From: Patescibacteria group bacterium
GTDB taxonomy: Bacteria > Patescibacteriota > Minisyncoccia > Phycocordibacterales > Phycocordibacteraceae
DNA: 64,000 nucleotides
Assembly: GCA_040388985.1 (NCBI GenBank)
Contig: JAZKAU010000002.1
Location: 420,114 to 484,113, forward strand
Direction of reading: 5' to 3'
A program made the position numbers and the translations under genes. The notes under the pieces are model-generated. The model worked only from the letters and a program-made list of their open reading frames with translations, made no database searches and was not told the DNA's origin. This document shows positions 2,773 to 62,738 of the stretch, in pieces; the first letter of the stretch is position 1; each line of letters opens with the position of its first letter.

Positions 2773-4017
2773 TTAATGAACACGGCCACGTTCATGGAAG
2801 GTTATGAAGAAGACGCCGGCAATGCCGATGATGCCTGCGGCGAAGAGGATAGGGGTCGTGGGCGCGAATATGGCAGCGACGGCGCCCGCGAAAAGGGGAG
2901 GGATAGACTGCGCAAGCGACTGGATGCTCGAGTTTATGCCGAGCACGCTTCCTTGCTCGTCATCATCGGAGCCTGCGCTCACGAGTCCGGTAAGGTTCGC
3001 GCCGATGAGGCCGCAGCAAATGGCGACCGGAACGGTGAGGATGTAGAGCTGTATGGTATCGGTCACGAAGTACAGGCCGGTAAGCGAAGCGCTCATGATA
3101 AGAAGTCCTCCTGCAGCGATGGCATGCGGAGTGAATCTCTTCGATAGGGGTCCGGTCACCGCTACTTGCGTTATGGCGAGCAGAGCGCCCACGAAGGCGA
3201 AGATATATCCGATATCACCCTGCTCGAAATTGAATTTCGCCACGAGGTATACGCCGAAGAAGGTGATGATGAAGGCGAAGCCGCTCTGGAAGAGGAAGGC
3301 GGTAGCGTAGAGCGCGCGATGACCGTGCGAGACGAGTGCTTCTCGTATGTTCTGGAATCCTTGCCAGGCTCGGATGTACTCCTTGGTCTTTGTCTTGAGG
3401 GTCTCCGGCAAGAGAAAGATCACGAAGAGCATGTTAATGATGGAAAGTCCGGCAGCGAGCCAGAAGGGAGTTGGAGCGCCGAAGAACCATGCTACATGCG
3501 GGTCGGACAAGAAGGCGCCGAGCAGCGGACCGATGATGAACCCGATGCCGTTTGCGGCACCGAGCAGGCCGAAGCTGCGCACGCGCCGCGAGGCAGGCGT
3601 AGAATCCGCGATCGCAGCTTGCGCCACCGCCGTATTGCCGCCCGTAAGGCCGTCAATCAGGCGAGCAATAAAAAGAAGTGGGATGCTGCGCACGAGTATG
3701 CCGATAGCGAACAGGATATAGGCGATACCGGTGCCTAGCAGCGAGAGCGCGAGTATGGGTTTGCGACCGAAGGTATCGGAAAGCTGCCCGAGGATGGGTG
3801 TCGCAATGAACATCGCGAAGGGATAGAGCGCGGTGAGCGCGCCGAGCAGGAGGTAGCCGGTGTGCGCGTCTATGGGCAAGTGATACGGATAGGCCGGATC
3901 AGCGAACAAGAGCGGAATGACGGGTATGAGGATGCCCACGCCCAGCATGTCCACCAGCACGATGGCGAAGACGACCCACAGCACCTTTCTCTCGGTAGAC
4001 TCTGCGGACGTTGCCAT
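2773..4017 (-). CDS. MFS transporter (drug:H+ antiporter-like)
   Basis: About 12 predicted TM helices. MFS signature 'SDTFGRKPIL' is in loop 2-3. Last gene of the efflux operon. Confidence 0.8.
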   Translation of the reverse strand: MATSAESTERKVLWVVFAIVLVDMLGVGILIPVIPLLFADPAYPYHLPIDAHTGYLLLGALTALYPFAMFIATPILGQLSDTFGRKPILALSLLGTGIAYILFAIGILVRSIPLLFIARLIDGLTGGNTAVAQAAIADSTPASRRVRSFGLLGAANGIGFIIGPLLGAFLSDPHVAWFFGAPTPFWLAAGLSIINMLFVIFLLPETLKTKTKEYIRAWQGFQNIREALVSHGHRALYATAFLFQSGFAFIITFFGVYLVAKFNFEQGDIGYIFAFVGALLAITQVAVTGPLSKRFTPHAIAAGGLLIMSASLTGLYFVTDTIQLYILTVPVAICCGLIGANLTGLVSAGSDDDEQGSVLGINSSIQSLAQSIPPLFAGAVAAIFAPTTPILFAAGIIGIAGVFFITFHERGRVH

Positions 4018-4058
4018 AGTTGCTCAAAGTATACGATGTCTTCGCACGCATCGCGCAG

Positions 4059-7000: not shown

Positions 7001-7178
7001 CATCGCTTGCCGAGGCTCCGGGAAGCGCCGTCGTGACGATACCAAGCGGTATGGAAATATCCGGACTCGCTTCCTTAGGAATGCTAGCGACTGCATAGAA
7101 GCCCGCGATAAGCAGGACGATAACGAGGAATATCGTAAAGCTGCGCTTGCGAAGGAAGAAACTCCAGAAGGACGTCAT
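4059..7178 (-). CDS. RND superfamily efflux permease (AcrB/HAE-type)
   Basis: 1039 aa with two large periplasmic loops and 12 TM helices. AcrB-like N-terminus. Sits directly downstream of the MFP gene. Confidence 0.85.
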   Translation of the reverse strand: MTSFWSFFLRKRSFTIFLVIVLLIAGFYAVASIPKEASPDISIPLGIVTTALPGASASDVERLVTDKIESGVLGVEHVSKVTSSSGAGISSVSVEFDSSANIDKSIQLLKDAVDKVRPDLPTEATAPTVSDVNFADQPILIISVSGNLAAGELTALSEQVSDEVKRVPGVSKVSISGIRARQVQVIARQESLRQYNLSLSDVTNAIRAAGVASPAGNITVDGVRYAVRFESAVTTTDQVADVVIPSAAGSSIHVRDVADVVDGLEDPSTYSRVSVAGAPAQPSLTLTVFKSRGGNIVRTGQAVENKLKELQTGILAGTNTVISYDGAQEVNKSLVELTRAGIETVILVMIVLYFTLGLRESLVAAASIPLSFLIAFIGMVAFGNTLNNVSLFSLILAIGILVDSGIVVVEAFHTRLIKTGNKDEAAVAAIREYAWPLFAGTFTTIAVFVPLFFLSGIIGKFLASIPFTVIFVLLASIFVALGIVPLLAVYFVHPTHGKLEMRQERYNQAAKTWYQGFLHRFLANRKNQNRFLVAMALLFVLALALPATGLLKSIFFPSDDSDFVYVQIEKPQGTDLGGTDLSMREVEEVLYANPHVASFVSETGSGSSFAGSGFGGGAGGGNIGNITVNLPKGHKETSAAFVEELRKELAPITSATVTVGEPAGGPPAAAPVTLTFTGEDLGELSGSADAAARVLNDIPGVVTVNTDTKNASSEFVVALDPSRASELGVSPVVVSDTLRTALFSTKATSIRTGKDDIEVRTKLNLNPNYKDPSETTDVSIDAVRALTVPGSAGPVPLSSIATITYEPAQTSISHEAGNRISTVTADIAASANAIQISNEFQKRFTPDMLGKGVTMKVGGASEDVSDSFTQLFVALIAGAALMLAILVLEFNSFRQSFYLLLIIPLSLVGVFAGLTLVGQPLSLTSMLGVIALAGVIINHAIILMDSVARIHREHADYSLEEVVVEAASTRLRPILLTTIVTVIGMVPLTLASAFWAPLAFAIMSGLAFSLLLTLVLIPMLYFRWPGKKIRAQYTKDSVG

Positions 7179-7203
7179 GGTATGGGTGAGGCAGGGGGCC
7201 CTG

Positions 7204-8781
7204 CTACGAGTCGGTGGCGACGTTCACTTTCTGTCCCTCGGACAGGCCACGCACGTCGGTGACGATGCGCATATCGCCCGTGAGTCCCGTGAGTACTTCG
7301 ATGCGATCGCCACGTACCTCGCCGATGGTAACCGGATGCGCGACCAGACGTCCGTCACTCCCTACCGTGAAGACCGAGCGGGAGTTAGCCATGAGCTTTA
7401 CGGCAGTCAGTGGGATGAGTTGCACGGAGGATGTTGCGACAGGGGCGACTGCCGCTGCTGGTGCGCTATTGGGAAGCGTAATACGTACCGACTGGCCGTT
7501 CGTAAGCGCTGGCGTTCCCGAAGGCGCGCTCGCCGTATCAACCGCTATATCGACCTCTATCTGCTTCGTCGTCGGATCAAGGGCGGGAGCGACGGTAGTG
7601 ATGATGCCCGTATAGCCGCCTTCGACCTGTACCTTCATGCCAGCGGTAAGGTTCTGGCGATCGGATTCGGAGACGTACGCCACAATCTCGAGCGCGCCGT
7701 TCTGGGCCACGGTCGCCACGTGCGTGAAGGCCGTCACGTAGTCGCCCACATGCACCGATAGGAAGTTAACCGTTCCGCCGATGGTCGCGCGGATACGGGT
7801 CTTCTCTAAGTTGGCCTGCGCGCCACGCAGCACGCCGAGCGCCTGCTTCACGCTTGCGTCCGCGCTTGCGGTCGCTCCGACCGTGCCGGTACGAAGGCTT
7901 CCCTTGGCTGCAGCCAGTTTCGCAAGCGTAGCGTCAATGTTCGCTCGTGCACTGGCGAGCGCGGCGATCTGTTCGGGAGTGGCGCGGGAATCGCGGTCGT
8001 TTGCTGCTGCCGAGAGTTCGAGGAGGAATTCAGAGACTGCCTGGGTGTCGGTAGTGGCCTGGGCAAGCAGGGTAGCGGGATCGGCACTTGCGGCGCTCCC
8101 AAGCTTCTGCTGCCACGCTATGATGCGCTTACCGAGCGCATCGCGCTTGCGATCGAGGTCCTTACTCGGCCCTTGATTGATGAGCAGGCGCGGCCCCGTA
8201 GCGGTCGGTCCGCCGAAGAACTGGTCGATGTCGTTCTCAAGTATGGTATCGACCGTCGTGTATGCGGCTGCGTACGTATCGGCAGCCGAGGCTCGGGTAT
8301 CGGGAAGCGACTGCGCGCTGCGCGCTGCGATAGCGGCGTCATAGGCGCCTTCTGCCTGCAGCACTTGCGCCGCTTCGCTTGCGTTATCGAGTTCAGCGAT
8401 GACGGCGCCTGCGGATACGGAGGCGCCGAGCTTCGTATTCACGCTCCTCACCGTGCCGCCTGTCTGCGCGAGCAGATCCGCCTCGGTCACTGAGCGCACC
8501 GAGCCGAGTATCGAGACGCCGTCGCCGTTTCCAGAGAGAGAGGAGACGCTCGCGAGGGTCACGGTGCGCTCCTGCGGGCTCGCATCGGTGGCCTTTCCGC
8601 CGTGCGCAAGCGCAAAACCTGCGACGAGGAGAATAGCGACGAGAATGGCTATGGCCCACTGTAGCCATCGCTTGAGGCCCCGATACTTCTTCCACAAGGA
8701 AGAGAGGCGGGTTGTGATACCTATATAGAGGGAACGGAAGAAATTGCGCAGAGAAGTCATGAGACCTTGTTTATACAGCAT
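7204..8781 (-). CDS. Efflux RND periplasmic adaptor (membrane fusion protein, HlyD/AcrA family) with long coiled-coil
   Basis: N-terminal TM, long Ala/Gln-rich coiled coil, C-terminal beta-barrel/lipoyl-like motifs. First gene of the MFP-RND-MFS operon. Confidence 0.75.
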   Translation of the reverse strand: MLYKQGLMTSLRNFFRSLYIGITTRLSSLWKKYRGLKRWLQWAIAILVAILLVAGFALAHGGKATDASPQERTVTLASVSSLSGNGDGVSILGSVRSVTEADLLAQTGGTVRSVNTKLGASVSAGAVIAELDNASEAAQVLQAEGAYDAAIAARSAQSLPDTRASAADTYAAAYTTVDTILENDIDQFFGGPTATGPRLLINQGPSKDLDRKRDALGKRIIAWQQKLGSAASADPATLLAQATTDTQAVSEFLLELSAAANDRDSRATPEQIAALASARANIDATLAKLAAAKGSLRTGTVGATASADASVKQALGVLRGAQANLEKTRIRATIGGTVNFLSVHVGDYVTAFTHVATVAQNGALEIVAYVSESDRQNLTAGMKVQVEGGYTGIITTVAPALDPTTKQIEVDIAVDTASAPSGTPALTNGQSVRITLPNSAPAAAVAPVATSSVQLIPLTAVKLMANSRSVFTVGSDGRLVAHPVTIGEVRGDRIEVLTGLTGDMRIVTDVRGLSEGQKVNVATDS

Positions 8782-8884
8782 AATTTAAGCTGAGTCAAAA
8801 GATGTGCTGGGTGTTTCTTCTATACCAAGGGTCTGGATAGGGGTACGCACATGGCTGCGTCATGACCCCTTCACCTTAGGCTGG

Positions 8885-8890
8885 TATACT
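8885..8890 (+). promoter_or_regulatory. Extended -10 element (TGGTATACT) 6 nt before the ATG, which would give a leaderless transcript
   Basis: 'ctggtatacttcaccaATG'. The same TGgTATAMT box precedes rnpB and several other genes in the window. Confidence 0.4.
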
Positions 8891-8896
8891 TCACCA

Positions 8897-9772
8897 ATGA
8901 AAAAGACCTACACCATCATAGTGATCGTACTCGTGCTACTCATGCTCGCCGGTATATATGTCGTTTCGCACTACCGCGCAACGCCTCCTATACCCGCCCC
9001 GACCACGAGCGTCACTTATGCTTGTAACGACAATAAGACGATACAGGCCGGGTTTACGGACACGGATGCGGTACTTACGCTTTCTGATGGCCGCACGGTT
9101 ACGCTCCCGCACGTCATGTCAGGCTCCGGCATCCGCTATGAAGCGAACGGCATCGTGCTAGTGGGAAAGGGAGACAACGCCTTCCTCGAAGAGAATGGCA
9201 CGCAAACCTACGTGGATTGTATCGCCAATAGCAGTGCGGACGCACCCACTACCGGCGACGCCACACAATTTATGGATTCGGGAAAGACTTTCTCCTTCAG
9301 CTATCCGAAGGCGTTTACGCTCTCAGGCGGCGACCTAGGGTACACGCAGTCATGGATGGAGAACGCGACAACGAGCGGTCTCGTGCTTGCCAAAGTCACC
9401 CTTCCTAAATCCTTCCAGCCGAGCACGAACTTCAGCGAAGCAGTATTCACGGTCGGCACGAGTCCTGATCCGACCGCAGTCGCTACCTGCCTCACCTACA
9501 ATCCGTCGGGAGGTCCCGCTACGTCTTCGTCTTCTGAAACTATCAACGGCACGACCTATACGGTCTTGCATTCGAGCGACGCAGGAGCCGGAAACCTCTA
9601 CGAGACGACGAGCTATCGCACGATACGTAATAGCCAGTGCTATGCCATCGAATACACCATCCATTCGACTAACATCGGAAATTATTCTCCTGACCAGGGC
9701 ATAACCGCCTTCGATCGCGATTCGGTCGAAGGAGCGCTCAAGGGTATCGTGCAGAGCTTCAAATTCCTCTAG
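8897..9772 (+). CDS. Membrane-anchored protein with an MliC-like (lysozyme-inhibitor fold) N-terminal domain
   Basis: 'MKKTYTIIVIVLVLLMLAGIYV' signal/anchor. 'C..SGSGIRYEANGIVLVGKGDNAFLEENG...C' matches the MliC pattern (two Cys, SxSGxRY, KGDxA). Confidence 0.55.
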   Translation: MKKTYTIIVIVLVLLMLAGIYVVSHYRATPPIPAPTTSVTYACNDNKTIQAGFTDTDAVLTLSDGRTVTLPHVMSGSGIRYEANGIVLVGKGDNAFLEENGTQTYVDCIANSSADAPTTGDATQFMDSGKTFSFSYPKAFTLSGGDLGYTQSWMENATTSGLVLAKVTLPKSFQPSTNFSEAVFTVGTSPDPTAVATCLTYNPSGGPATSSSSETINGTTYTVLHSSDAGAGNLYETTSYRTIRNSQCYAIEYTIHSTNIGNYSPDQGITAFDRDSVEGALKGIVQSFKFL

Positions 9773-9782
9773 GCAGTTACGA

Positions 9783-9827
9783 GTAGTGGCAATGCCCGAC
9801 ATCCGATGTCGGGCATTGCCACTACTG
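9783..9827 (+). terminator. Strong hairpin (about 21-bp perfect stem) after the MliC-like gene
   Basis: agtagtggcaatgcccgacatc / gatgtcgggcattgccactact. Confidence 0.55.
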
Positions 9828-9831
9828 CTCT

Positions 9832-9889
9832 AAGAATCGAGACAAAAAACCACTATGATATATCATAGTGGTTTTTTGTCTCGATTCTT
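9832..9889. repeat. 58-bp perfect palindrome
   Basis: aagaatcgagacaaaaaaccactatgat|atcatagtggttttttgtctcgattctt is exactly self-complementary. Confidence 0.9.
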
Positions 9890-10115
9890 TCACGATATAT
9901 TCACCCCACCTTATATATGGTGTGCGGGTATGACGTACAGGACCTATCGGACAAGCAATCGGCACAGCCTGCGATTCAAGATGAAGCTGTTACTGCGCAG
10001 GACGCGTACCCGTATACTCACGAATCTCATAGAGCTTCTCGACACGGATACCCGCCTTGCGGCATAAGGCCGTAATCTATAGTGAACATATAGTGGTCCT
10101 GGCGCGGATGCTAGG

Positions 10116-11801: not shown

Positions 11802-12464
11802 ATGGTTGCGACCAACGGAAGAGTTGAAATGTCTATCCCTGACTTCGTGCAAGGGAAAAGAGCGATCGATCCCGCTACGATTCCGGCGCCTGTCTTCTTC
11901 CAGCTCATCTGGGACACGGTTGTTGGGCTCAAGCTCCTGAAACGCTCCAGCAGATTCATGTCAATAAAGAAGCTGCTCGAGGCTGGACGGGTGGCCACCT
12001 GCCAGATCGAGCGCATCATCGACCCCAGGGTCATTACGCACAAAGAGAAGGGGAACCCTAATCCTGCGAATACCTACGCGTTGCTTCACGGCACCGATCC
12101 GTTCGCCCGCTCGTGGGGAGAAGAGTCGAGGAAACCGGTTCAGTCGCAGCATGTCGTGATTTCGCCCGTAAACGACCTGTTCGTCTTGACGACGGACTGG
12201 AACGCGCGCGAGGAGCGGGATCCTGTCGGTGTCCGCAAGACAGTGACCAAGTTCTGGTATGAGGCCAGGCTGATCCTCATGCAAGACCAACACCAGCTGA
12301 TCGGGTACCTGGAACGGAATCCCGCGGCCGGCTCGGCGATTCTCAATGCGCTGCATACCATAGTTTCCGATGTCGAGAGAAGTCTGAAGCTCGAATATGA
12401 CACCGGCACCTCGCAGCGCAGGCAGCTCAAGGAACAGCTCAGGAGACTGAATCTCCGCTCCTGA
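11802..12464 (+). CDS. Hypothetical protein (no recognisable domain; atypical AGA/AGG Arg codon usage)
   Basis: ORF with RBS 'aaggag' before the ATG at 11802. A terminator follows. Codon usage differs from its neighbours. Confidence 0.55.
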   Translation: MVATNGRVEMSIPDFVQGKRAIDPATIPAPVFFQLIWDTVVGLKLLKRSSRFMSIKKLLEAGRVATCQIERIIDPRVITHKEKGNPNPANTYALLHGTDPFARSWGEESRKPVQSQHVVISPVNDLFVLTTDWNAREERDPVGVRKTVTKFWYEARLILMQDQHQLIGYLERNPAAGSAILNALHTIVSDVERSLKLEYDTGTSQRRQLKEQLRRLNLRS

Positions 12465-12472
12465 GGTCGAAG

Positions 12473-12498
12473 ATGGCCCGCACTTCGGTGCGGGCCAT
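12473..12498 (+). terminator. Hairpin terminator (atggcccgcac-ttcg-gtgcgggccat)
   Basis: Perfect 11-bp stem with a tetraloop, placed after the stop codon. Confidence 0.5.
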
Positions 12499-12608
12499 AC
12501 CTCTATCGCCGTACCTGGCCGAGAGTCGTTTGACCGAATACTCTATAATTAGTATGATATCCCTATCAGCCCTGTCGGGCATTTTTATTTCTATACCTCC
12601 GCATTCTC

Positions 12609-14393
12609 ATGGAAATCCGTAATATCGCGATCATCGCCCACGTGGACCACGGCAAGACCACGCTTACCGACGCCATCATGAAGCAGACAGGCGCTGCTCC
12701 TGAAGGCACGTCTATGGACAGCAACGCGCTCGAGCACGAGCGCGGCATCACTATCTATTCGAAGAACACGTCCATCGAGTACAAGGGTACGAAGATCAAC
12801 ATCGTCGATACCCCAGGCCACTCTGACTTCGGCTCTGAGGTAGAACGCGTGCTACGTTCCATCGACTCAGTACTCCTCATCGTCGACGCGCAGGAAGGCC
12901 CGATGCCGCAGACGCGCTTCGTGCTCAAGAAGTCGCTTGAGCTGGGCCTCAAGCCCATCGTCGTACTCAACAAGATAGATAAGCCTGCAGCCGACCCTGA
13001 TCGCGCTGAAGAGCAGGTCCTCGAACTCTTCCTCGAGCTCGGTGCTTCCGACGAACAGTCTGATTTCACTACGGTATACGCTATAGGCCGCGAAGGCGTC
13101 GCGATGCGTAAGCTCGATGACCCTCGTGTGGACCTCACCCCGCTCCTCGACGTCATCCTCGAGAATGTCGCCCCTACCTCAAGCGATGAGAGTTCAAGCA
13201 AGCCGCTCAAGCTTCAGACATTCAATCTCGCCTATGACAATTTCCTCGGACGTCTCGCCATCGGGCGCGTATACGAAGGCGTCGTAAAGGCTGGACAGGC
13301 AGTCATCGTGAAGAAGCCGGACGGCGAGGCTCGCAGCGCCAAGATCACGAAGGTCTTTACCTTTAAGGGTATCGAACGCGTTGAAGTGCCTGAGGCAGTA
13401 GCAGGAGATATCGTTATCGTCGCGGGTATCAGTGACGCATACATCGGTGAGACCATCACCACTGACGCATCGGTTGAACCGATGAGCGCCATCGCTATCG
13501 ACGAGCCGACGATCACCGTGAACTTCCTCGTGAACAACTCACCATTCGCAGGTCGCGAAGGAAAGTACGTGACGAGCCGCCAGCTCCGTGAATACCTTGA
13601 GAAGGAACTGGAAGTGAACGTAGGTCTCAAGGTAGATTTCGTCTCACCGGATGCCTTCAAGGTCTCCGGTCGCGGCGAACTCCATCTCGCCATCCTGCTC
13701 GAGAACATGCGTCGCGAAGGGTATGAGATGCAGGTCAGCCAGCCGCAGGTCATCATCCGCGAGGAGGAAGGACAGAAGCTCGAGCCGTATGAGGAGGTGA
13801 CTATCGATACGCCGAGCGAATACCAGGGCGCAATCATAGAGCGTCTCGGTACCCGCGCCTTCGTGCTCCAGAATCTCGTACAGCATGACAATTCGGTGCG
13901 TCTCACGCTCGAAGGTCCGACTCGCGGCCTCCTCGGCTATCGCAATCAGTTCGTCGTCGACACGAAGGGAGAGGGCATCCTTTCGACGCGCGTCGTGGGC
14001 TTCAAGCCGTACGCGGGAGAGATAAAGAAGCGTCAGGTGGGCTCCATGATCTCGATGGCAACCGGCAAGGCGCTCGGCTACGCGCTCTGGAGCATGCAGG
14101 AGCGCGGTACGCTCTATATCGTTCCGGCTACCGAAGTCTATGAAGGCATGGTCGTGGGGAACACGAGCAAGGGCGAGGAAATGGTCGTGAACCCGACCAA
14201 GGGCAAGAACCAGAGCAACGTCCGCTCTTCGGGCATGGACGAGGCTATCAACCTTGTTCCGGCCTTTACCCTCAGCATCGAGCGGGGTCTCGAGGTCATG
14301 ACCGATGATGAGTATCTCGAGATCACGCCCGTGTCAGTGCGTCTGCGCAAGCAGGGACTTACGGAAAGCGATCGCTCGAAAGCACGCCGATGA
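12609..14393 (+). CDS. typA: Translational GTPase TypA/BipA
   Basis: '[16 protein letters not shown]' G1 motif, EF-G-like domains, 594 aa. Confidence 0.9.
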
Positions 14394-41530: not shown

Positions 41531-41615
41531 GGAGGCGTCGCATAGTGGTCTAGTGCGCACGCTTGGAAAGCGTGTGAACCGCAAGGTTCCGAGAGTTCGA
41601 ATCTCTCCGCCTCCG
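41531..41615 (+). tRNA. tRNA-Ser (GGA)
   Basis: Cloverleaf with 7-bp acceptor (ggaggcg/cgcctcc), anticodon loop ttGGAaa, long variable arm, T-loop ttcgaat. No encoded CCA. Confidence 0.85.
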
Positions 41616-41657
41616 CAGATGTCAAAGAAGGCGCGAGAGCGCCTGATTTGCTACAGC

Positions 41658-41788
41658 TGCGAGAGGCGGAGAGATTCGAAAGCCGGAGGCGCGAAGCCGA
41701 ATCAAGTCTTCGAGATTCGTTGCCGAGGCGTGGTCAAGCGCACTTAGCGAGTCTTCGAGCTTAGTGACGAGTGACCGAATCTCTCCGC
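41658..41788. repeat. Inverted plus direct partial copies of the tRNA-Ser 3' end downstream of the tRNA
   Basis: 'gagaggcggagagattcgaa' (the reverse complement of the tRNA 3' end) at 41658-41679, and 'gaatctctccgcc' (direct copy) at 41776-41788. Confidence 0.6.
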
Positions 41789-41895
41789 CGCTAAACAGCA
41801 GGTGAGCTTTGCAACTATGTTTTAGCAGGATGCCGAGTAATCTCGGCGCCGCTAAGACTTTAGATTCCATGCCAAATTGTAGGGTAGTATTGAAT

Positions 41896-48537: not shown

Positions 48538-49374
48538 ATGGGAAGATCCAAAGTCCTTATACCTGAGGACGACTTGAAGCGACTGTATATTAGTGAGCAT
48601 TGGTCACCCGCAAAAATTGGTGATACATATGGTTGCAATTCCATCACTGTACGTTCCCGCCTGATTGAAGCCGGAATCCCATTGAAGACAAAAAGCGCCG
48701 CCCATACGCGGTATCCTAAAAGCGATTTCAATGGATCAGATATTGAAAAAGCATATATGCTGGGTTTTCGATACGGAGATTTGAACGTCTACTTGCCTCG
48801 AGGAAAATCAGAAACCATAGTCGTGCGTTCGCATTCGACGCTTGCCGTGCAAGGAAATTTGTTCAAGAGACTTTTTGAGTCCTACGGAACGATTACTGTT
48901 TCTAAGAATGTAAGAAGTACTCAAATGACTACATATCTGAATATGAGCTTCAGCTTTCTTCTCGGTAAGTATCCGACTGAAATGCGAGAATGGCTTGCCT
49001 CGTCCAATGAAAGACTTTGGTCATTTGCAGCGGGGTACATAGATGCGGAAGGAACATTCGGACTAAATCAAGGTAAGGGTAGGTTCAAGATAGACGCATA
49101 CGATTACGAAATTCTATTCGACATACATTCTCTTTTTCTTCACTCAGGCATCAATAGCAAATTTCGCGTCATTGCTCGAAAAGGAGAGAATGATTATGGT
49201 TGGATATGGAAACATGACCTTTGGAGGATCTCCGTGAATGAAGCGAAATCAATCGAAACGCTGATACACAAAAGCAAACCTTACATGCTTCACGAAAAGC
49301 GCATTACTGACGCAAATATGGTATTACAGAATATAGCTGAACGCAGAGTACATGGAACCATTGCATATCACTAG
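48538..49374 (+). mobile_element. Free-standing LAGLIDADG homing endonuclease gene (two motifs, N-terminal HTH-like region); GC ~45% versus ~60% for the flanks
   Basis: 'YMLGFRYGDLNVY' and 'AAGYIDAEGTFGL' LAGLIDADG motifs. Sharp GC drop across 48490-49380. The 3' end overlaps the lepA start by 23 nt. Confidence 0.75.
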
Positions 49375-51337: not shown

Positions 51338-51697
51338 ATGGCACGGCACCCAGCACCACGGAATCGTATGAAGGAATTGGTAACGGCAGTGATACTGTCG
51401 TTCGCCATCGTCTGGCTGGTCTTCCTGGTCGTAAGCATCTTTCGGAAGGAGGAGATAGCGCGTAAGACGGTAGCCGGGACGAAGGTCGAGCTTGCGGCAC
51501 TCGATACGCGTAAGAACGACCTCTCGAAGACCGTAAGCGACATGGATACCGAGCGCGGTCAGGAGGCATCACTGCGCGAGACGTTCGGGGTTGCGCGGCC
51601 GGGCGAGGACGTTATCATCGTAGTGCCGAAGACCGAGACAGCGCCTCCGCCGCAGCTCACGCTTTGGCAGCGGATCAAAGGCTTCTTCGGGCTCTAG
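51338..51697 (+). CDS. Septum formation initiator family protein (FtsB/DivIC-like)
   Basis: TM followed by a coiled-coil ('ELAALDTRKNDLSKTVSDMDTERGQEASLRE'). Confidence 0.55.
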   Translation: MARHPAPRNRMKELVTAVILSFAIVWLVFLVVSIFRKEEIARKTVAGTKVELAALDTRKNDLSKTVSDMDTERGQEASLRETFGVARPGEDVIIVVPKTETAPPPQLTLWQRIKGFFGL

Positions 51698-51821
51698 AGT
51701 GCGTCTAGAATCTCCATCTGCTGCGTTACGGGTCCCTGCTCGTTTCTCCGCCGTACGCCCTAGTACGTCTACGAAACTCGCTGTCCCGCGCCTTGCATAT
51801 GAAAATTCTAGACGCACTCTT
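51695..51821 (+). repeat. Intergenic repeat family 1, copy F (flanked by a 16-bp perfect inverted repeat)
   Basis: tagagtgcgtctagaat-[ctccatctgctgcgtt...ccgccgtacgccctagtacgtc...cgcgccttgcatatg]-aaaattctagacgcactct. Confidence 0.85.
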
Positions 51822-51831
51822 AATTACCGTT

Positions 51832-51902
51832 GCGGGTATAGTTTAGTGGTAAAATGGGACCTTCCCAAGGTTCAGATCGGGGTTCGATTCCCCGTACCCG
51901 CA
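51832..51902 (+). tRNA. tRNA-Gly (CCC)
   Basis: Acceptor gcgggta/tacccgc. Anticodon loop ttCCCaa. T-arm ggggttcgattcccc. 71 nt, no encoded CCA. Confidence 0.85.
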
Positions 51903-51954
51903 CAAAATAAGGAAAAGGATATGTAAATATCCGATGACTATATTTTGTGACGTA

Positions 51955-52082
51955 GGTACGGGGAATCGAACGGCGGAGCCGGTATACAAGACGAGTCCTC
52001 GAGTGCTTGTCGGCGAGCCGCGGCCAGCGTTCTTAGGAGCGCAGCGAGTTAGAAAAAGCGGGCCGATTCCCCGTACCCGCAC
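51955..52082. repeat. Chimeric repeat: inverted tRNA-Gly 3'-end copy, a ~60-bp core that recurs at 62427-62487, and a direct tRNA-Gly 3'-end copy
   Basis: 'gtacggggaatcgaac' is the reverse complement of the tRNA-Gly 3' end. The core 'ggcggagccggtatacaagacgagtcctcgagtgcttgtcggcgagccg' is identical to the reverse complement of 62427-62474. 'gattccccgtacccgcaca' is repeated at 52065-52083. Confidence 0.8.
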
Positions 52083-52125
52083 AGGTAGGGCTGGGAAAGT
52101 AGATTACTATTCCAGCTATAAGCAA

Positions 52126-52782
52126 TTAATCCGAGAGATATCTCACTACGGAACTGCAATAGTCCTCGAACGAATCTCCGTTTGGAGAGAAGAATCCGTA
52201 TCCGTGTTCTTTAGCGATGCGCTCGACTCTCTTATTCTTTATGACCTCGTCCGCAAACCATTTTCGAACGGCAGAGTCGTCACCGCCGTCTTCCTCAACT
52301 ATCTTCTTGTAGACCCAGTCTTTCTTCGCATGCGCATATCCAAGGATCGTATTCAAATATGAATCATCCGTAAAGCCTACAAAGACAGCCTTTAATACTA
52401 GATGCTTGAGCGACAAGCTGTTTACGAGTTCGGGCGTTATGGCCATCCCTTCAATAGCTAAAGATGCAGTTCCCGCCTTTCGATCGTAATAATTGATTAA
52501 TCCTACGATTGTCTTCCAGGTCAGGTCCTCTTGCGTTATTTCCTGCCGAAAATGTTTCGTGTGAGATTCGTCCTTACTTTCTCCCGAACGATGGAACGAC
52601 ACATCGCCTTCGAAAGATAGGTGATTAACGTTTATGAAAGATTCGTCTGTGAGCGTGTATCTCGCAGCCTCTCGCAAAGCATCCGAGGAAATAGCGGTCA
52701 TGGGGTTTTGCCGTATCAGTTCATTGAAAATAATAGTCTTTCCTGAGCGAGGAGACCCGCCGATGAGGTATAGAGTAGTCAT
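52126..52782 (-). CDS. P-loop NTPase/kinase-like protein (Walker A 'GGSPRSGKT'), low-GC
   Basis: Walker A at residues 8-16, about 218 aa. AT-rich relative to the genome. Confidence 0.6.
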   Translation of the reverse strand: MTTLYLIGGSPRSGKTIIFNELIRQNPMTAISSDALREAARYTLTDESFINVNHLSFEGDVSFHRSGESKDESHTKHFRQEITQEDLTWKTIVGLINYYDRKAGTASLAIEGMAITPELVNSLSLKHLVLKAVFVGFTDDSYLNTILGYAHAKKDWVYKKIVEEDGGDDSAVRKWFADEVIKNKRVERIAKEHGYGFFSPNGDSFEDYCSSVVRYLSD

Positions 52783-52849
52783 GTCAATTTAGTATACGAC
52801 AGTATTTCCTGCCACTGAGGCGTCCTGATTCCAGGGTATACTTCTCATA

Positions 52850-53410
52850 ATGGAACATCGCGAAGTCGAGGTGCGCTTCCTTGAGATAGATAAAGAGCAG
52901 CTAATCGCAAAGCTGCGAGATCTGGGCGCCAAAGATTTGGGTGAGGATATGCTAGAAGAGGTGATTCTCTACGACAAGCCAATGACTTGGCAGGAGAAGG
53001 GTGGGAAAGTGCTCCGTCTGCGCACACGGCAAGGGAAGACGGTGTTGACCTATAAGCATCATGAGAAAGCATCAGTAGGAGGGACTGAGGAGATAGAATT
53101 CGAGGTCAGTGATCCTCACAAAGCCGAAGTTTTGTTAGACCGGCTCGGATATGAAGTATATAGACATCAACAGAAGAAACGACACACATTCGAGCTGGGA
53201 AGCGTAGTCGTCGATATTGATACCTGGCCCAAGATACCTACCTACGTGGAACTCGAAGGCGTCGATGAAGAGTCACTGAAAGCGACAGCTATGGCTCTCG
53301 ATCTTGACTGGAAAGACGTCGAATTGCGAAACCCACGGCTGGTGTTGGAAGAGAAGTACGGAATCCCGATCGCGACCATGCGCTGGTTTACGTTTGATGG
53401 GTTCGAGTAG
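52850..53410 (+). CDS. CYTH-domain protein (triphosphate tunnel metalloenzyme / CyaB-like)
   Basis: N-terminal 'EVEVRFLEI' (ExExK-type start) and conserved acidic and Lys/Arg tunnel residues through the length. Confidence 0.6.
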   Translation: MEHREVEVRFLEIDKEQLIAKLRDLGAKDLGEDMLEEVILYDKPMTWQEKGGKVLRLRTRQGKTVLTYKHHEKASVGGTEEIEFEVSDPHKAEVLLDRLGYEVYRHQQKKRHTFELGSVVVDIDTWPKIPTYVELEGVDEESLKATAMALDLDWKDVELRNPRLVLEEKYGIPIATMRWFTFDGFE

Positions 53411-53447
53411 GGTAGGACATTCGCCGTACCTGTTGATAACTGAAAAT

Positions 53448-53456
53448 GGTATACTG
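53448..53456 (+). promoter_or_regulatory. Extended -10 (TGGTATACT) upstream of the glutaredoxin gene
   Basis: 'aaaaTGGTATACTgag'. The same 'ggtatactgag' string occurs at the DUF192 promoter. Confidence 0.4.
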
Positions 53457-53480
53457 AGAACATAGTAAGAACCTATCTAT

Positions 53481-53723
53481 ATGGATACGAACATCACCAT
53501 CTACAGCACCCCTACCTGCCACTTCTGCCACATGGCTAAGGATTTCCTGACCGAACACAAGGTCCCGTTCACTGACTACGACGTGCAGTCGAACCTCGAG
53601 AAGCGCCAGGAGATGATCGAGAAGAGTGGCCAGATGGGCGTACCTGTCATCTTCGTGGGCGACGAGATGATCATCGGCTTCGATAAGGAGAAGCTCTCCA
53701 CTCTTGCGGGCATAACGGCATAA
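53481..53723 (+). CDS. NrdH/glutaredoxin-like small redoxin (CHFC)
   Basis: 'ITIYSTPTCHFCHMAKDFL...GVPVIFVGDEMIIGF' thioredoxin-fold CxxC. Confidence 0.8.
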   Translation: MDTNITIYSTPTCHFCHMAKDFLTEHKVPFTDYDVQSNLEKRQEMIEKSGQMGVPVIFVGDEMIIGFDKEKLSTLAGITA

Positions 53724-53736
53724 GGGCACGCAACAT

Positions 53737-53765
53737 GAAACCGCCCTCCATCGGAGGGCGGTTTC
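53737..53765 (+). terminator. Rho-independent terminator
   Basis: gaaaccgccctcc-atcg-gagggcggtttc. Confidence 0.7.
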
Positions 53766-53900
53766 ATGTTAGTCTCCAAATGCAGGTACACGTGTAGTGC
53801 CTCGCTTGCCCTTGTAAGCAGTTCTCCATGAGTCGACTGCTTGCTCGGACTTCGCTCGGCGTGATAGTAACATGAATACTTGTTCCTCTCAGCCTCGCTC

Positions 53901-53972
53901 GCCCTTGTAGTTCAATGGATAGAACGGAAGTTTCCTAAATTTCTGATCCAGGTCCGATTCCTGGCAAGGGCA
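53901..53972 (+). tRNA. tRNA-Arg (CCT)
   Basis: Acceptor gcccttg/caagggc. Anticodon loop ttCCTaa. T-arm ccaggtccgattcctgg. A partial copy of the 5' end ('cctcgcttgcccttgta') lies 90 bp upstream. Confidence 0.8.
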
Positions 53973-54029
53973 CAATCCTGAAGTTCCAATATGGCTGTAA
54001 GCATAGCTATAACGAGGTATAATGTAGAT

Positions 54030-54770
54030 ATGCAAAAGAAAGAACTTGTCATCCCGCTCGTAGCGATAGTGCTTATTGTCCTTATAGCTGTTCTGCTGGT
54101 CTGGCACAGCGCAGGTCCGGAGAACGGATCGCCTGTCTTAGGAACTTCAGCAACGACATCCATTGCTTTGCCCGCGACATCTACGATCACGCAGAGCACG
54201 ACGATCGTATCTACGTCTGAGACCTATTATCCCTATGGTTCCGTCACGCTTAGCTTGAACGAGCCAGCGGGTTTCAAGGACGGTTTCTCCATTCGCCCTA
54301 CAGCGATACTTGAAGACAGCCGATGCCCGGAGGATGTCGAGTGCATTCAAGCGGGAACCGTGCGAATCTCGCTCAAGGCAAGTTCACCAAAGGACTCGAG
54401 TACGGTACAAGTCAGTCTCGGCAAGAGTATCACGGTAGGCAGCGAGACGATTACCTTCGAATCCGTAGTGCCTGCGCGCGCCGAAGGCGTGCGCATCGCT
54501 GACAGCGCATATCGCTTCACGCTGCGTGTTGAGAAGACTGCAGTAAGTTCCGGTCCGCCTCCCGTGGTTACCACTAAGCCCTGCTACATCGGCGGCTGTT
54601 CCTCCGAGCTCTGCACTGACGCGCCGGGCGGCGTCTCGAGCTGCATCTACCGCTCGGAGTATGCCTGTTATCGAGGAGCGACATGCGCGCGCCAATCTGA
54701 CGGGAAATGCGGATGGACGCCAACGCCTGAACTTAAGTCGTGCTTAGCCAATCCTCCGGCTCTTCAGTAG
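54030..54770 (+). CDS. Membrane-anchored secreted protein with C-terminal 8-Cys domain (hypothetical)
   Basis: TATAAT sits 6 nt before the ATG. N-terminal TM. C-terminal 'CYIGGCSSELC...CIYRSEYACYRGATCARQSDGKCGW'. Confidence 0.5.
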   Translation: MQKKELVIPLVAIVLIVLIAVLLVWHSAGPENGSPVLGTSATTSIALPATSTITQSTTIVSTSETYYPYGSVTLSLNEPAGFKDGFSIRPTAILEDSRCPEDVECIQAGTVRISLKASSPKDSSTVQVSLGKSITVGSETITFESVVPARAEGVRIADSAYRFTLRVEKTAVSSGPPPVVTTKPCYIGGCSSELCTDAPGGVSSCIYRSEYACYRGATCARQSDGKCGWTPTPELKSCLANPPALQ

Positions 54771-61490: not shown

Positions 61491-62330
61491 CTACGACTTA
61501 GATTTCCAGGGTATGGGAGTTCCCCATAGTAGAGAGAAGGCCGCCGCATAGGGATGGCCGTTGCCGCCGTACTTGCGCGCAAGCGCCGACACATCGGTAG
61601 TGCCGTCGCTCCGCAACGAGACGCGGACTCCCCAGGTATGTACGCTTGCGATAAGCGCTATAGGCGGGAGTTTTAATGATAGTTTATTTCCTACCGGCGA
61701 GACGAACTGTTTCGAGCATGAAGCGAGATAACACTCATATCCTTCAAATTCGATAAGCTCGGCCTGCGCCATGATCTGTGCGACGATTATCGATTTGTAT
61801 TCGGCATATACTCGCCCGTGCTCTATGATAGTCTCTCGTTCATGAGGATCCTCCATCTGAGCCTCGAGCGATTCCCACTCAAAGAATGTCTGAGGCCGCG
61901 TATAGAGATATGCGAGCGCTGATTCCGTATCGGGAAGGTCGGATCGATAGAGATCGCCCTGCTCTACGTACTGCAAGAGCATCGGTACGTTCGATTCAGG
62001 ATGGAAGTATTTCCAAGATATGACTGCGCCTGAGTGATCGCTCGTATACCGGTACTCTGGCATAGAAATAATGACATCTTCCACACCCTCGTGATGATCG
62101 AGTACGGTAACCGAAGCAGCCTCAGCTATATAGCGATCCATGATATCTTTCGGGTAGCAGAAGTCGACGAAGTAGAGATGGGCTCCTTCGAAGCCGGTAG
62201 GCGGTTCGATATCCCGCGACAAGGGAATATACTCAGCGCTATCGCCGAGCTTCTTCCAGGCAGCGTAGGCGCCGCCGAAGCCGTCAGGACAGTTGCCGTG
62301 ATAGAGGATGACGGTGCGGGGAGGTTCCAT
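61491..62330 (-). CDS. DHH-family phosphoesterase (NrnA-like)
   Basis: 'HGNCPDGFGGAYA', 'VLDHHEG' (DHH), 'YGGNGHPYAAAF' (GGGH). Confidence 0.65.
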   Translation of the reverse strand: MEPPRTVILYHGNCPDGFGGAYAAWKKLGDSAEYIPLSRDIEPPTGFEGAHLYFVDFCYPKDIMDRYIAEAASVTVLDHHEGVEDVIISMPEYRYTSDHSGAVISWKYFHPESNVPMLLQYVEQGDLYRSDLPDTESALAYLYTRPQTFFEWESLEAQMEDPHERETIIEHGRVYAEYKSIIVAQIMAQAELIEFEGYECYLASCSKQFVSPVGNKLSLKLPPIALIASVHTWGVRVSLRSDGTTDVSALARKYGGNGHPYAAAFSLLWGTPIPWKSKS

Positions 62331-62412
62331 AGGTTTACTGTATCGGTTTCAAAGTATAGTGGAAAGAGGACGGGATTCAGCCGCAGTCACTAACTCGCTA
62401 CGCTCCTAAGTG

Positions 62413-62495
62413 CTGCCGGCCCCGGCTCGCCGACAAGCACTCGAGGACTCGTCTTGTATACCGGCTCCGCCGTTCGAATCCCTCACCGCTGGTAA
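62413..62495. repeat. Second copy of the chimeric tRNA-end repeat (reverse orientation), fused to a tRNA-Val 3'-end fragment
   Basis: The reverse complement of 62427-62474 is identical to 51976-52023. 'gttcgaatccctcaccgc' (62475-62492) is an inverted copy of the tRNA-Val 3' end at 62541-62558. Confidence 0.8.
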
Positions 62496-62537
62496 AACAA
62501 TACTCGAAAACGGTTCCCGTTTTCTCGTTTGTTTTTG

Positions 62538-62610
62538 TGCGCGGTGAGGGATTCGAACCCCCGACATCGTCAACGTCAATGACGCGCTCTACCAACTGAG
62601 CTAACCGCGC
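62538..62610 (-). tRNA. tRNA-Val (GAC)
   Basis: Minus-strand gcgcggttagctcagttggtagagcgcgtcaTTGACGTtgacgatgtcgggggttcgaatccctcaccgcgca. Anticodon GAC. A terminator hairpin lies downstream at 62500-62535. Confidence 0.85.
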
Positions 62611-62738
62611 TGTAAGAGCCAGGATACCGCATATCGTCTCCATTTTCAATTCAACGGAAGGGTTCTCAAGGTCGCTTGCAATACCGGCTGATTGCGATAC
62701 ACCTAATAGCAGGAAACCTGTTCTGAGAGGAATTGTTC

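Follow-up and report, generated by a model that had tools for sequence, protein, structure and literature searches.

A variable slot between tRNA genes in a Parcubacteria backbone, with a structured element that copies part of its own tRNA

The 2-kb segment between a tRNA-Gly and a tRNA-Arg gene described here is probably a variable slot in the conserved housekeeping backbone of a Parcubacteria genome, with tRNA genes as the integration sites that seed it. The slot would hold four independent things: a mini-element, a kinase gene, a CYTH gene and a resident glutaredoxin gene. The segment was studied within a stretch of 64 kb, referred to below as the window, and the features are listed in Table 1. 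As a preliminary description of this DNA had stated, the segment lies between two tRNA genes, both called intact on the plus strand; partial self-copies near both were likewise found (a 20-nt direct and a 17-nt inverted copy for tRNA-Gly, a 17/18 match for tRNA-Arg). No integrase or recombinase was detected in the islet ORFs or among the 20 large ORFs of the 64-kb window, in agreement with that description, so that no enzyme encoded here can be linked to the activity or origin of the mini-elements.

Table 1. Positions of the features discussed, numbered from the first letter of the window
Feature	Positions	Strand	Remarks
Structured element, copy Ser	41660..41795	+	126 bits; 46 nt downstream of tRNA-Ser(GGA), 41531-41616
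MITE-like 123-nt insert	51697..51819		Perfect 15-nt terminal inverted repeats (GAGTGCGTCTAGAAT); between the stop of the DivIC-like gene and tRNA-Gly
tRNA-Gly(CCC), intact	51832-51903	+	ARAGORN; Rfam tRNA 68.2 bits
Palindromic trailer, small central hairpin	51904..51954	+	A-tract, GGATAT..ATATCC, T-tract
Structured element, copy Gly, ~135 nt	51951..52084	+	Covariance model 142 bits
P-loop kinase-like protein, 218 aa	52126-52782	-	Walker A GGSPRSGKT; invariant D34, E111, G112
Divergent spacer, 67 bp	52783..52849		Between kinase (-) and CYTH (+)
CYTH/triphosphate-tunnel protein, SaTTM-like, 186 aa	52850-53410	+	PF01928
Extended -10 box TGGTATACT	53447-53455	+	Upstream of glutaredoxin gene
Glutaredoxin-like protein, YruB-type, 80 aa	53481-53723	+	CHFC
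Perfect 18-bp hairpin after glutaredoxin gene	53732..53770	+	Terminator-like, no clean T-run
93-bp insertion scar, 5' end of tRNA-Arg	53799..53909	+	
tRNA-Arg(CCT), intact	53901-53973	+	ARAGORN, Rfam; syntenic in L024, L025, L026
Structured element, copy Val	62359..62493	-	125 bits; downstream of tRNA-Val(GAC), 62537-62610 (-)

For comparison of the site, we used the three closest LepA relatives found, L024 (91% LepA identity) and L025 and L026 (86-87%), all of which were collinear with the window on both flanks of the slot. Gene order is conserved from MurJ and LepA through a DivIC-like gene, (tRNA-Gly), glutaredoxin, tRNA-Arg, small ORFs, tRNA-Phe and DUF2914 to HSP20. Between the DivIC-like gene and the glutaredoxin gene, L024 carries a 113-aa ORF, L025 an NTPase_I-T gene and L026 no gene (61 bp); the kinase and CYTH genes (~1.4 kb) are the sole genes inserted in the slot relative to these three. 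The glutaredoxin, 62-83% identical at the syntenic position in all of them, is a resident backbone gene and not cargo. Smaller insertions flank these genes. The MITE-like insert had a DNA fold z of -5.6, and L024 has only 5 nt at its position. The scar at tRNA-Arg comprises an 18-nt duplication (53799-53816 and 53892-53909, 17/18 identical) that covers tRNA positions -9 to +9, i.e., the 5' start plus 9 upstream bases, and the distance from the glutaredoxin stop to tRNA-Arg is 177 nt in the window versus 62-68 nt in the relatives.

The AT richness claimed earlier was borne out for the segment as a whole, with a GC content of 0.489 for 51904-53900 versus 0.561 for the whole window; 0.8% of equal-sized windows had GC as low, and the lowest-GC window starts at 52101. 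By gene, the composition is uneven. Among the 64 ORFs of the window, GC3 of the kinase gene was third lowest (0.50, z -1.95), that of CYTH was unremarkable (0.57, z -1.13), and that of the glutaredoxin gene was native-like or higher (0.815).

A structured element was found downstream of three of the five tRNA genes of the window (Ser, Gly and Val), and the closing stem of each copy duplicates the 3' part of its own tRNA. The Gly copy consists of an exact 17-nt inverted copy of tRNA-Gly positions 53-69 (51955-51971), a ~92-nt core (51972-52063) and an exact direct copy (20/20) of the tRNA 3' part from C56 (52064-52083); the 17-mer of the tRNA-Gly 3' end had 3 matches versus 0.19 expected by chance. 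Together, the trailer, the tRNA-Gly 3' end and the inverted copy form a long hairpin (51882-51971; -54.1 kcal/mol, z -9.0), and matches to microRNA models in Rfam were rejected as spurious reflections of it. In the Ser copy, a 17/17 inverted and a 14-nt direct copy of the tRNA-Ser 3' part surround a diverged core, while the core of the Val copy is 92.5% identical to that of the Gly copy, with 53 nt shared identically. Compared with L026, where the next gene directly adjoins the tRNA, the Val copy is inserted. Of the 50 tRNAs examined in 106 other loci, none was followed by this architecture.

At tRNA-Gly, a distance of 179 bp separates the 20/20 direct repeat from the tRNA copy, so that the repeats bracket the mini-element and not the kinase or CYTH gene, and a candidate for a third repeat beyond these two genes (53417-53434) matched at 12/18 positions, which is not significant. 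The preliminary description had treated the islet as one unit; this did not hold, and the tRNA-Gly repeats enclose only ~180 bp of it. For a tRNA-integrated island made of the kinase and CYTH genes, no significant bounding direct repeat and no recombinase inside were found, although the pair is absent from the relatives' site. The ~180 bp after tRNA-Gly would instead be what remains of a tRNA-integrating mobile element, or a miniature form of one, without cargo; they are built of the palindromic trailer, the inverted tRNA 3' copy, the structured core and the direct tRNA 3' copy. Such mini-elements may be decayed integrants, or may have been mobilised in trans. A simple attachment-site model does not account for the inverted tRNA copy, and large serine recombinases are not known to require extended stretches of identity or a structured arm.

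A covariance model of the Ser, Gly and Val copies had only two other matches in ~840 kb, at 9816-9974 of L012 and 8742-8832 of L002, which belong to two other Parcubacteria species. After each match comes a duplicate of the 3' part of a tRNA-Gln gene in the same locus; this duplicate matches at 20/20 and lies 6.9 kb from the tRNA in L012, and matches at 19/20 and lies 905 bp from it in L002. The matches thus sit at the distal ends of elements integrated at tRNA-Gln. In L002, the closing stem of the element is missing or weak. The repeat-bounded interval of L012, a full-length relative of the element, has a GC content of 0.41 versus 0.53 in its flanks and encodes a large serine recombinase (Resolvase, Recombinase and Zn_ribbon_recom domains). 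Moreover, a kinase-family gene adjoins the element in all three genomes: it lies inside the repeat-bounded 905-bp interval in L002, in L012 it begins 26 nt past the distal repeat, and in the window its stop comes 42 nt past that repeat. In four other close kinase loci (L003, L004, L107 and L108), neither a tRNA nor an element was found near the kinase gene. Furthermore, L002 and L012 may share the tRNA-Gln-kinase adjacency by descent, so that the link between kinase and element amounts to about two independent observations.

The kinase homologs were AT-richer than their host loci in all six other genomes checked, and the GC content of the gene stays at ~0.39-0.42 regardless of host GC. Being AT-rich in every host and repeatedly adjoining element ends, the kinase gene most likely arrived as mobile cargo; it would be an accessory gene with its own leaderless-type promoter. 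As the composition of CYTH is ordinary (z -1.1), this gene could equally well have moved within the genome or have come from outside it. We also considered that no horizontal transfer took place, with both genes being old residents that were rearranged into the slot or lost in the relatives, and with low GC reflecting weak selection or amino-acid composition. This is unlikely overall, albeit the most serious competitor. CYTH orthologs occur in many contexts, and their composition is ordinary for most hosts (z -2.2 to +1.2), gene order outside the backbone is poorly kept in these genomes, both genes follow the genome's own promoter style, and GC3 of CYTH is within ~1 sd of the window mean. Against it stand the absence of both genes at the site in three relatives that each have different content there, the constant AT richness of the kinase gene across hosts and its position at integrative-element ends in three genomes. 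The earlier claim of horizontal acquisition survives in part: it is favoured by the absence of the two genes at the site in the relatives, by the AT-rich kinase homologs and by the element end that tRNA-Gly bears, and it fails for the resident glutaredoxin and is weakened for CYTH, which is widespread in Patescibacteria.

The mini-elements could also be more than passive scars. The ~135-nt element may work as a structured RNA, or as single-stranded DNA folded into a site like the attC of integrons, and its closing helix would match the target tRNA and help to choose or process the integration site; we consider this reading, as a whole, doubtful. Across the five copies, 87% of cells were paired, compared to 65% after shuffling and 34-39% in slid controls, and 28 of 42 pairs showed compensatory changes; these statistics draw on only five copies from three genomes, with two of the copies aligned by the covariance model itself. 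A MAFFT-based alignment of the three window copies already gave 16 of 42 compensatory pairs, and pairing of the closing stem is kept with four tRNA-specific sequences (Ser, Gly, Val and, in L012, Gln). A search of 51500-54300 and 62250-62700 against Rfam 15 (E <= 10) returned no family for the element, only tRNAs and hairpin noise. On the other hand, G-U and A-C counts (9 versus 6) revealed no strand preference and therefore indicate no RNA strand, no promoter or terminator points to a transcript of its own, and the L002 copy does not keep a strong closing stem. We know of no recombinase that uses such a site. Integron attC sites carry the terminal core sites RYYYAAC and GTTRRRY; an attC-type site was rejected here, as no conserved AAC/GTT pair occurs at the element junctions (slashes mark the junction: left, TCGAAC/GG in Gly and Val and TCGAAA/GCC in Ser; right, GTGAC/CGA). 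If functional, the element would be loosely comparable to attC sites or to guide-bearing element ends. It is conceivable, though improbable, that the three-helix element is the target-matching component of an integrative element of serine-recombinase type with the kinase as habitual cargo.

As a tRNA-seeded variable slot, the segment resembles the tycheposon islands of Prochlorococcus, which are seeded by tRNAs through successive integrations and include some elements with large serine recombinases (bioRxiv 10.1101/2020.12.28.424599). The two share a streamlined genome with variable accessory genes gathered beside its tRNA genes, partial tRNA copies that mark past integrations, and degraded remnants beside intact tRNAs; L012 likewise has a large serine recombinase, and the window has three remnant-bearing tRNAs. 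They differ in that genes for an integrase or for replication are absent from the window, its remnants are only ~180 bp and cargo-less, and the phylum is Patescibacteria. The inverted tRNA 3' copy and the conserved base-paired core are additions that the passages of that report drawn on here do not describe for tycheposons. The segment is thus an ordinary tRNA-seeded hotspot, and the structured element is its part of most interest. A base-paired ~135-nt end signature with a copy of its own tRNA offers a handle on the mobile DNA of the candidate phyla radiation, and may be used to find integrative elements and their decayed remnants in poorly annotated genomes.

The preliminary description had recognised a P-loop NTPase by its Walker A motif, and this motif is present in the minus-strand ORF together with a kinase-type P-loop fold (P-loop small-molecule kinase, NMP-kinase-like fold). 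No Pfam family reached its threshold for the protein. Among 19 kinase-family members, 14 matched the mevalonate-3-phosphate 5-kinase model (best E 9e-10) and 13 a 2-phosphoglycerate kinase model (best E 3e-11). The window protein appears distantly related to these kinases; membership in either family was rejected, as it scored 19.4 bits versus a cutoff of 250 and 15.6 versus 603 with the curated models of these families. Also among the closest known systems is the gluconate/shikimate kinase fold group, and the structure model has a beta-hairpin insertion (residues 55-82) without a match in the top structures. We describe the protein as a predicted small-molecule P-loop kinase. Among 5.8 billion proteins, its family forms only 19 clusters, all of Parcubacteria-type origin. 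The GenBank protein record holds 191 of the 218 residues; its N-terminus was probably annotated too short, which may cost it the Walker A motif.

The CYTH assignment made earlier was confirmed by a match to PF01928 (E 3.5e-12, 46.9 bits, cutoff 23.2). The best solved relative is SaTTM (Saci_0718; E 6e-14), which was shown to act as a triphosphatase and not to form cyclic nucleotides (PMC8233210). Class IV adenylate cyclases are defined by an HF motif four residues before ExExK (HFxxxxExExK), and in them the central arginine of the xRxR strand is replaced by a small neutral residue; lack of the HF motif and retention of this arginine are features of phosphatases (PMC8233210). The window protein starts MEHREVEVRF, with only four residues before the motif and no HF, as is the case across the orthologs, and in its LRLR strand the central arginine is kept and conserved (R56, R58). 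The opposed acidic and basic tunnel residues (R56, R58, K69, E81, E83, R105, K109, R111, D122, D124, E134 and E136) were invariant or nearly so among 27 orthologs. The N-terminal motif is E5-V-E7-V-R9, i.e., ExExR for ExExK; as E5, E7 and R9 are invariant in the 27 orthologs, the lysine was conservatively replaced by arginine. The protein thus resembles SaTTM in its PF01928 domain, conserved tunnel residues, missing HF motif and retained central arginine, and differs in that the ExExK hallmark is invariantly ExExR in its Patescibacteria clade. Public records call it a class IV adenylate cyclase, a name that likely stems from a marginal pass of the NCBIfam cyaB model TIGR00318 (58.6 bits, cutoff 57.95). 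Despite that pass, the missing HF motif and the retained central arginine speak against a CyaB-type cyclase. The protein is most likely a metal-dependent triphosphatase acting on tri- or polyphosphate or NTP, and the common CYTH proteins of Patescibacteria are, judging from these residues, probably triphosphatases and not the cyclases of their public names.

The divergent arrangement of the kinase and CYTH ORFs reported earlier stands. Each gene has a GTATACT box, 7 nt and then ATG, and these spacings point to leaderless starts for both; the boxes are their putative promoters. The pattern TGnTATACT, 6-8 nt and ATG is the usual leaderless style genome-wide, and a -35/-10 consensus scan gave no match. 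Strong extended -10 promoters had been claimed for the islet. This applies to the glutaredoxin gene alone, where a true extended -10 precedes the gene; the kinase and CYTH boxes have no TG before them.

It had further been proposed that kinase and CYTH form a small metabolic or signalling module, i.e., a jointly acquired two-gene nucleotide or polyphosphate unit in which CYTH hydrolyses or cyclises the (tri)phosphorylated product of the kinase. We regard this as very improbable, in spite of the shared 67-bp spacer between divergent genes and their similar -10 boxes. No CYTH gene occurred within up to 10 kb of a kinase homolog in eight distinct loci, nor beside the homologs of L107 and L108 (0/10 distinct kinase loci in total); in L107, the closest homolog (77%) instead has the gene for ribosomal protein S20 adjoining upstream. 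Conversely, hmmsearch (E <= 0.01) found no kinase-family match in 80 metagenomic CYTH loci (492 kb; flanks of at least 3 kb in 47; L027 and L028 repeat contigs of L007 and L006), and none was found in CYTH loci L006-L010 (3 orthologs), giving 0/84 fetched CYTH loci. The two were therefore never syntenic in the sampled loci, the outcome that the preliminary description had itself named as counting against its proposal. The genes are also unequal in GC3, and the close kinase clade is rare while CYTH is widespread in Patescibacteria. The precedent behind the idea lies in plant TTM1 and TTM2, in which a P-loop kinase is fused to a TTM domain (PMC9582702). Compared to these, the genes here are separate and divergent and are paired in no other sampled genome, the plant kinase domain is uridine/cytidine-kinase-like and the window kinase is not, and the plant TTM domain is catalytically inactive, whereas the window CYTH keeps all catalytic residues. 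Also in favour of a module, an NDK-like gene adjoins CYTH orthologs in 8 of the 80 loci, and NUDIX fusions do so in 4, one of them with a different, AAA_33-type kinase domain. With no detectable link between kinase and CYTH, the proposed module is not supported, and the case illustrates how a shared insertion hotspot alone can give neighbouring enzyme genes the appearance of a module.

A resident gene can similarly be miscounted as island cargo, as the glutaredoxin illustrates. It is a small CxxC protein of thioredoxin fold (PF00462, E 1e-21) with the CHFC motif noted earlier. The NrdH-like label given to it was loose: NrdH identity was rejected (TIGR02194, 49.5 bits versus a cutoff of 85.75; PRK10329, 19.2 versus 131), and the best model was the YruB family TIGR02196, at 86.2 bits just under its cutoff of 88.55, so that YruB-type glutaredoxin-like is the better name. 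The gene would be served by an extended -10 promoter and a terminator of its own. L024 carries the equivalent box TGCTATACT, and L025 has an equivalent hairpin at the same position as that after the window gene.

The preliminary description had outlined an islet between tRNA-Gly(CCC) and tRNA-Arg(CCT), and the features that it listed (two tRNAs, three intervening ORFs, partial tRNA copies, and low GC) are all present. The window comes from a Parcubacteria (candidate phyla radiation) genome, judging by the names and sources of the homologs. GC content is 0.489 in the islet segment and 0.561 across the window; of all 2-kb stretches in the 64 kb, the one with the lowest GC lies in this segment. 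The signal is uneven from gene to gene: among 64 ORFs, GC3 is 0.50 for the P-loop protein, hereafter the kinase (z -1.95), 0.57 for the CYTH gene (z -1.13), and 0.815 for the glutaredoxin gene, similar to the adjoining LepA and DivIC-like genes. All kinase homologs start with M-x-x-L-Y-L-I-G-G-S-P-R-S-G-K-T, but the GenBank protein for the kinase gene is 191 aa long, 88% of the ORF length, so its annotated start probably cuts off N-terminal residues including the Walker A motif (ORF start, 52702-52782).

Coordinates of the features discussed (window positions unless a locus is named)
Feature	Position	Strand	Remarks
Ser copy of the structured element	41660-41795	+	
LAGLIDADG homing-endonuclease-like ORF	48538-49374	+	PF14528, E 3e-7
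MITE-like insert, 123 nt	51697-51819		Perfect 15-nt terminal inverted repeats (GAGTGCGTCTAGAAT), DNA fold z -5.6
tRNA-Gly(CCC)	51832-51903	+	ARAGORN and Rfam
Gly copy of the structured element	51951-52084	+	
P-loop protein (kinase), 218 aa	52126-52782	-	Walker A GGSPRSGKT
CYTH protein, 186 aa	52850-53410		
CxxC glutaredoxin, 80 aa	53481-53723		Perfect 18-bp hairpin after gene
Insertion scar, 93 bp	53799-53909		5' end of tRNA-Arg; 18-nt duplication (17/18)
tRNA-Arg(CCT)	53901-53973	+	ARAGORN and Rfam
Val copy of the structured element	62359-62493	-	
Structured element in L012	9816-9974		Covariance model; ends 26 nt upstream of kinase
Structured element in L002	8728-8851		Covariance-model match 8742-8832, starting 88 nt downstream of kinase

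Using LepA as the anchor, we fetched the three closest relatives with sufficient flanking DNA, L024 (91% LepA identity to the window) and L025 and L026 (86-87%). The window and all three relatives share the order MurJ, LepA, DivIC-like, glutaredoxin, tRNA-Arg, small ORFs, tRNA-Phe, DUF2914, HSP20, and further genes. The glutaredoxin gene is a resident: it occupies the identical position in the three relatives, with 62-83% identity; the extended -10 box before it is of the same kind in L024 (TGCTATACT) and in the window (TGGTATACT). The gap between the DivIC-like and glutaredoxin genes measures 61 bp in L026, is filled by an NTPase_I-T gene (12176-12718) in L025, and holds tRNA-Gly and a 113-aa ORF in L024 and tRNA-Gly, the kinase, and CYTH in the window. 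The content of this gap differs across the relatives; only ~1.4 kb is thus inserted relative to them, and the islet is not one unit. The proposed acquisition at a tRNA is partly supported: it is likely for the kinase and uncertain for CYTH, and it does not extend to the glutaredoxin gene.

The kinase and CYTH genes had been read as a functional module, a reading that our data do not support: in the sampled kinase loci (n = 10, from a genome collection and look-ups) and CYTH loci (from a metagenome collection and look-ups), the pair was never syntenic. A search of 5.8 billion clustered proteins returned 19 kinase relatives at E <= 1e-3, and no CYTH gene was found in eight distinct kinase-homolog loci drawn from the genome collection and look-ups, with flanks of up to 10 kb. 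The closest homolog, in L107 (77% identity), is preceded by the gene for ribosomal protein S20, L108 likewise has no CYTH gene, and no kinase neighbor recurred across 10 loci. CYTH itself is common across Patescibacteria, with 458 clusters at E <= 1e-5, many at 55-70% identity; hmmsearch and tblastn detected no kinase-family member in 80 metagenomic CYTH loci (492 kb) or in the looked-up CYTH loci L006-L010. Within the 80 loci, an NDK-like gene adjoins CYTH in the same direction in eight (L064, L066, L074, L084-L086, L097, and L100), a PEBP gene recurs nearby in seven, and NUDIX fusions recur as neighbors in four (L039, L043, L045, and L046). A large serine recombinase gene lies 1.5 kb from CYTH in one of the 80 (L054), with no tRNA, and was regarded as a coincidence. 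NUDIX genes also adjoin the kinase homologs in L002 and L108, and the NDK-like, NUDIX, and NTPase_I-T (L025 slot) neighbors share a loose theme of nucleotide house-cleaning. The literature precedent for the pairing is the plant TTM1/2 fusion, whose kinase domain belongs to the uridine/cytidine-kinase type (PMC9582702); the window kinase differs from it in type.

Despite its public name, the CYTH protein is predicted to be a metal-dependent tri/polyphosphate or NTP triphosphatase. Among solved structures, SaTTM of Sulfolobus acidocaldarius is the best relative (E 6e-14), a triphosphatase that produces no cyclic nucleotide (PMC8233210). True class IV cyclases have an HF motif placed four residues ahead of ExExK and have lost the central arginine (PMC8233210), whereas the window protein shows neither trait: its N terminus (MEHREVEVRF) has no HF, and LRLR is retained. 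Every tunnel residue is conserved in 27 orthologs, with ExExR replacing ExExK. The prediction follows from these features and is made despite a marginal pass of TIGR00318 by the protein (58.6 bits versus 57.95). For the kinase, a profile search retrieved 1245 representative proteins at E <= 1e-3, and neither the window kinase nor 10 sampled representatives matched a Pfam family above its cutoff. Models for mevalonate-3-phosphate 5-kinase and 2-phosphoglycerate kinase matched 14 (weakly) and 13 of 19 family members, respectively, far under their cutoffs. It appears to be an uncharacterized kinase of small molecules, whose substrate might reasonably be guessed to be a phosphorylated organic acid. 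A phage or defense origin was rejected: the sole PHROGs match was a weak ATPase match of the P-loop protein, PADLOC returned no match, and viral contigs yielded neither kinase relatives nor the core 24-mer of the structured element described below.

The partial copies of tRNA-Gly are real, and they mark an element remnant of ~180 bp in its own right, not the borders of the islet. When the 155 bp separating tRNA-Gly from its direct copy were used as a BLAST query, a second site emerged beside tRNA-Val on the opposite strand; the Gly and Val copies match at 92.5% across 93 nt and share 53 identical nt. A scan of 55 tRNAs found the same arrangement at tRNA-Ser, and none of 50 tRNAs in 106 other loci had it. 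In tRNA orientation, each tRNA is followed first by a palindromic trailer of 46-49 nt that contains a small terminator-like hairpin. Next come an exact inverted copy of positions 53-69 of that tRNA, a homologous core of ~92 nt, and a direct copy of its 3' part from C56. Two partners are available to the inverted copy: it can form a hairpin with the tRNA 3' end (z -9), or it can pair with the direct copy and so close a three-helix structure. RNAalifold on the three window copies gave compensatory changes at 16 of 42 pairs. At tRNA-Val, comparison with L026 shows the element to be an insertion, since there the tRNA directly adjoins the following gene.

Several other readings of this element were considered. 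A guide-RNA-like remnant (Cas12k/TnpB style, with a GTT motif before the copied block) was dropped: the "guide" lies sequestered in the closing stem, and the 20 large ORFs of the window include no TnpB, Cas, or Tn7-like gene. An integron attC site was dismissed on its core-site consensus, which the element does not match. Neither ARAGORN nor Rfam detected a degraded tRNA or tmRNA at 51904-52083, where microRNA-model matches reflected the long hairpin, and Rfam contained no family matching the element. A putative third, decayed tRNA-Gly repeat (53417-53434), which would put the kinase and CYTH between repeats, agreed at only 12 of 18 bases, past the scan's 6-mismatch limit, and was discarded as insignificant.

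When the three window copies of the structured element were used to build a covariance model, it produced only two other matches in ~840 kb of Patescibacteria DNA, and both adjoin kinase homologs, in L012 and L002. Across the five copies, 87% of cells were paired (shuffles, 65%; slid controls, 34-39%), and 28 of 42 pairs changed on both sides, counts that are biased towards structure since two of the five rows were aligned by the model itself. G-U versus A-C counts (9 versus 6) gave no strand preference. In both L012 and L002, a copy of the 3' part of a tRNA-Gln from the same locus comes after the core, beginning again with C56 and matching at 20/20 positions over a distance of 6.9 kb and at 19/20 over 905 bp, respectively; the closing stem in L012 copies the 3' part of the tRNA-Gln 6.9 kb away, and that in L002 is weak. 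The L012 interval (3068-9954, 6.9 kb, in tRNA-Gln) has a GC content of 0.41 versus 0.53 in its flanks and codes for a large serine recombinase, an AAA ATPase next to an S8 subtilase, and a DUF5681 protein, with a ~16-nt motif (GACCTAGACGGGTCAG) near both ends. This interval is a bona fide integrated element, of which the structured core forms the distal end. The 905-bp interval in L002 holds nothing but the kinase and the core.

The kinase thus lies within ~100 nt of such an element end in three genomes (the window, L012, and L002). In each of six other genomes examined, the kinase homolog exceeded its host locus in AT content, and four other close kinase loci had no element or tRNA nearby. 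The kinase is likely, but not proven, to be a frequent cargo of the element; the L002 and L012 arrangement may be common by descent. The closest described analogue of this locus is the Prochlorococcus tycheposons, in which a tRNA-seeded island carries stacked elements and remnants. The islet as submitted is ordinary and the interest rests with the structured tRNA-matching element, the part of an otherwise ordinary hotspot that deserves follow-up.

The locus is an insertion hotspot, as is underlined by the MITE-like insert, the tRNA-Arg scar, and the LAGLIDADG gene. The MITE-like insert, between the DivIC-like stop and tRNA-Gly, occurs once in the window; at this position L024 has 5 nt. The scar duplication covers tRNA-Arg positions -9 to +9; the glutaredoxin stop lies 62-68 nt from tRNA-Arg in the relatives versus 177 in the window. 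At 0.42, the GC of the free-standing LAGLIDADG ORF is the lowest in the window (GC3 z -3.1); the ORF is inserted between MurJ and LepA, two genes that abut or overlap in L024, L025, and L026. An L024 ORF (13089-13742) was discarded as its relative, having no similarity to it and no Pfam match.

Promoter-like TGnTATACT sites occur at 8882, 25693 (-), 29592, 51321, and 53447, with an ATG 6-8 nt downstream at four of them; at 53447, which precedes the glutaredoxin gene, the spacing is 25 nt. The extended -10 promoters noted in the islet hold for this last site; the kinase and CYTH boxes, in the spacer 52783-52849, keep the same 6-8-nt spacing but do not have the TG. From this pattern, leaderless mRNAs driven by extended -10 promoters may be widespread. 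A cysteine-rich, secreted-looking PF27854 (Heavy_Cys_CGP) protein is encoded 3' of tRNA-Arg in the window (53991-54770, +) and also after tRNA-Arg in L024, and L012 carries a homolog (515-1255, -) upstream of tRNA-Gln.
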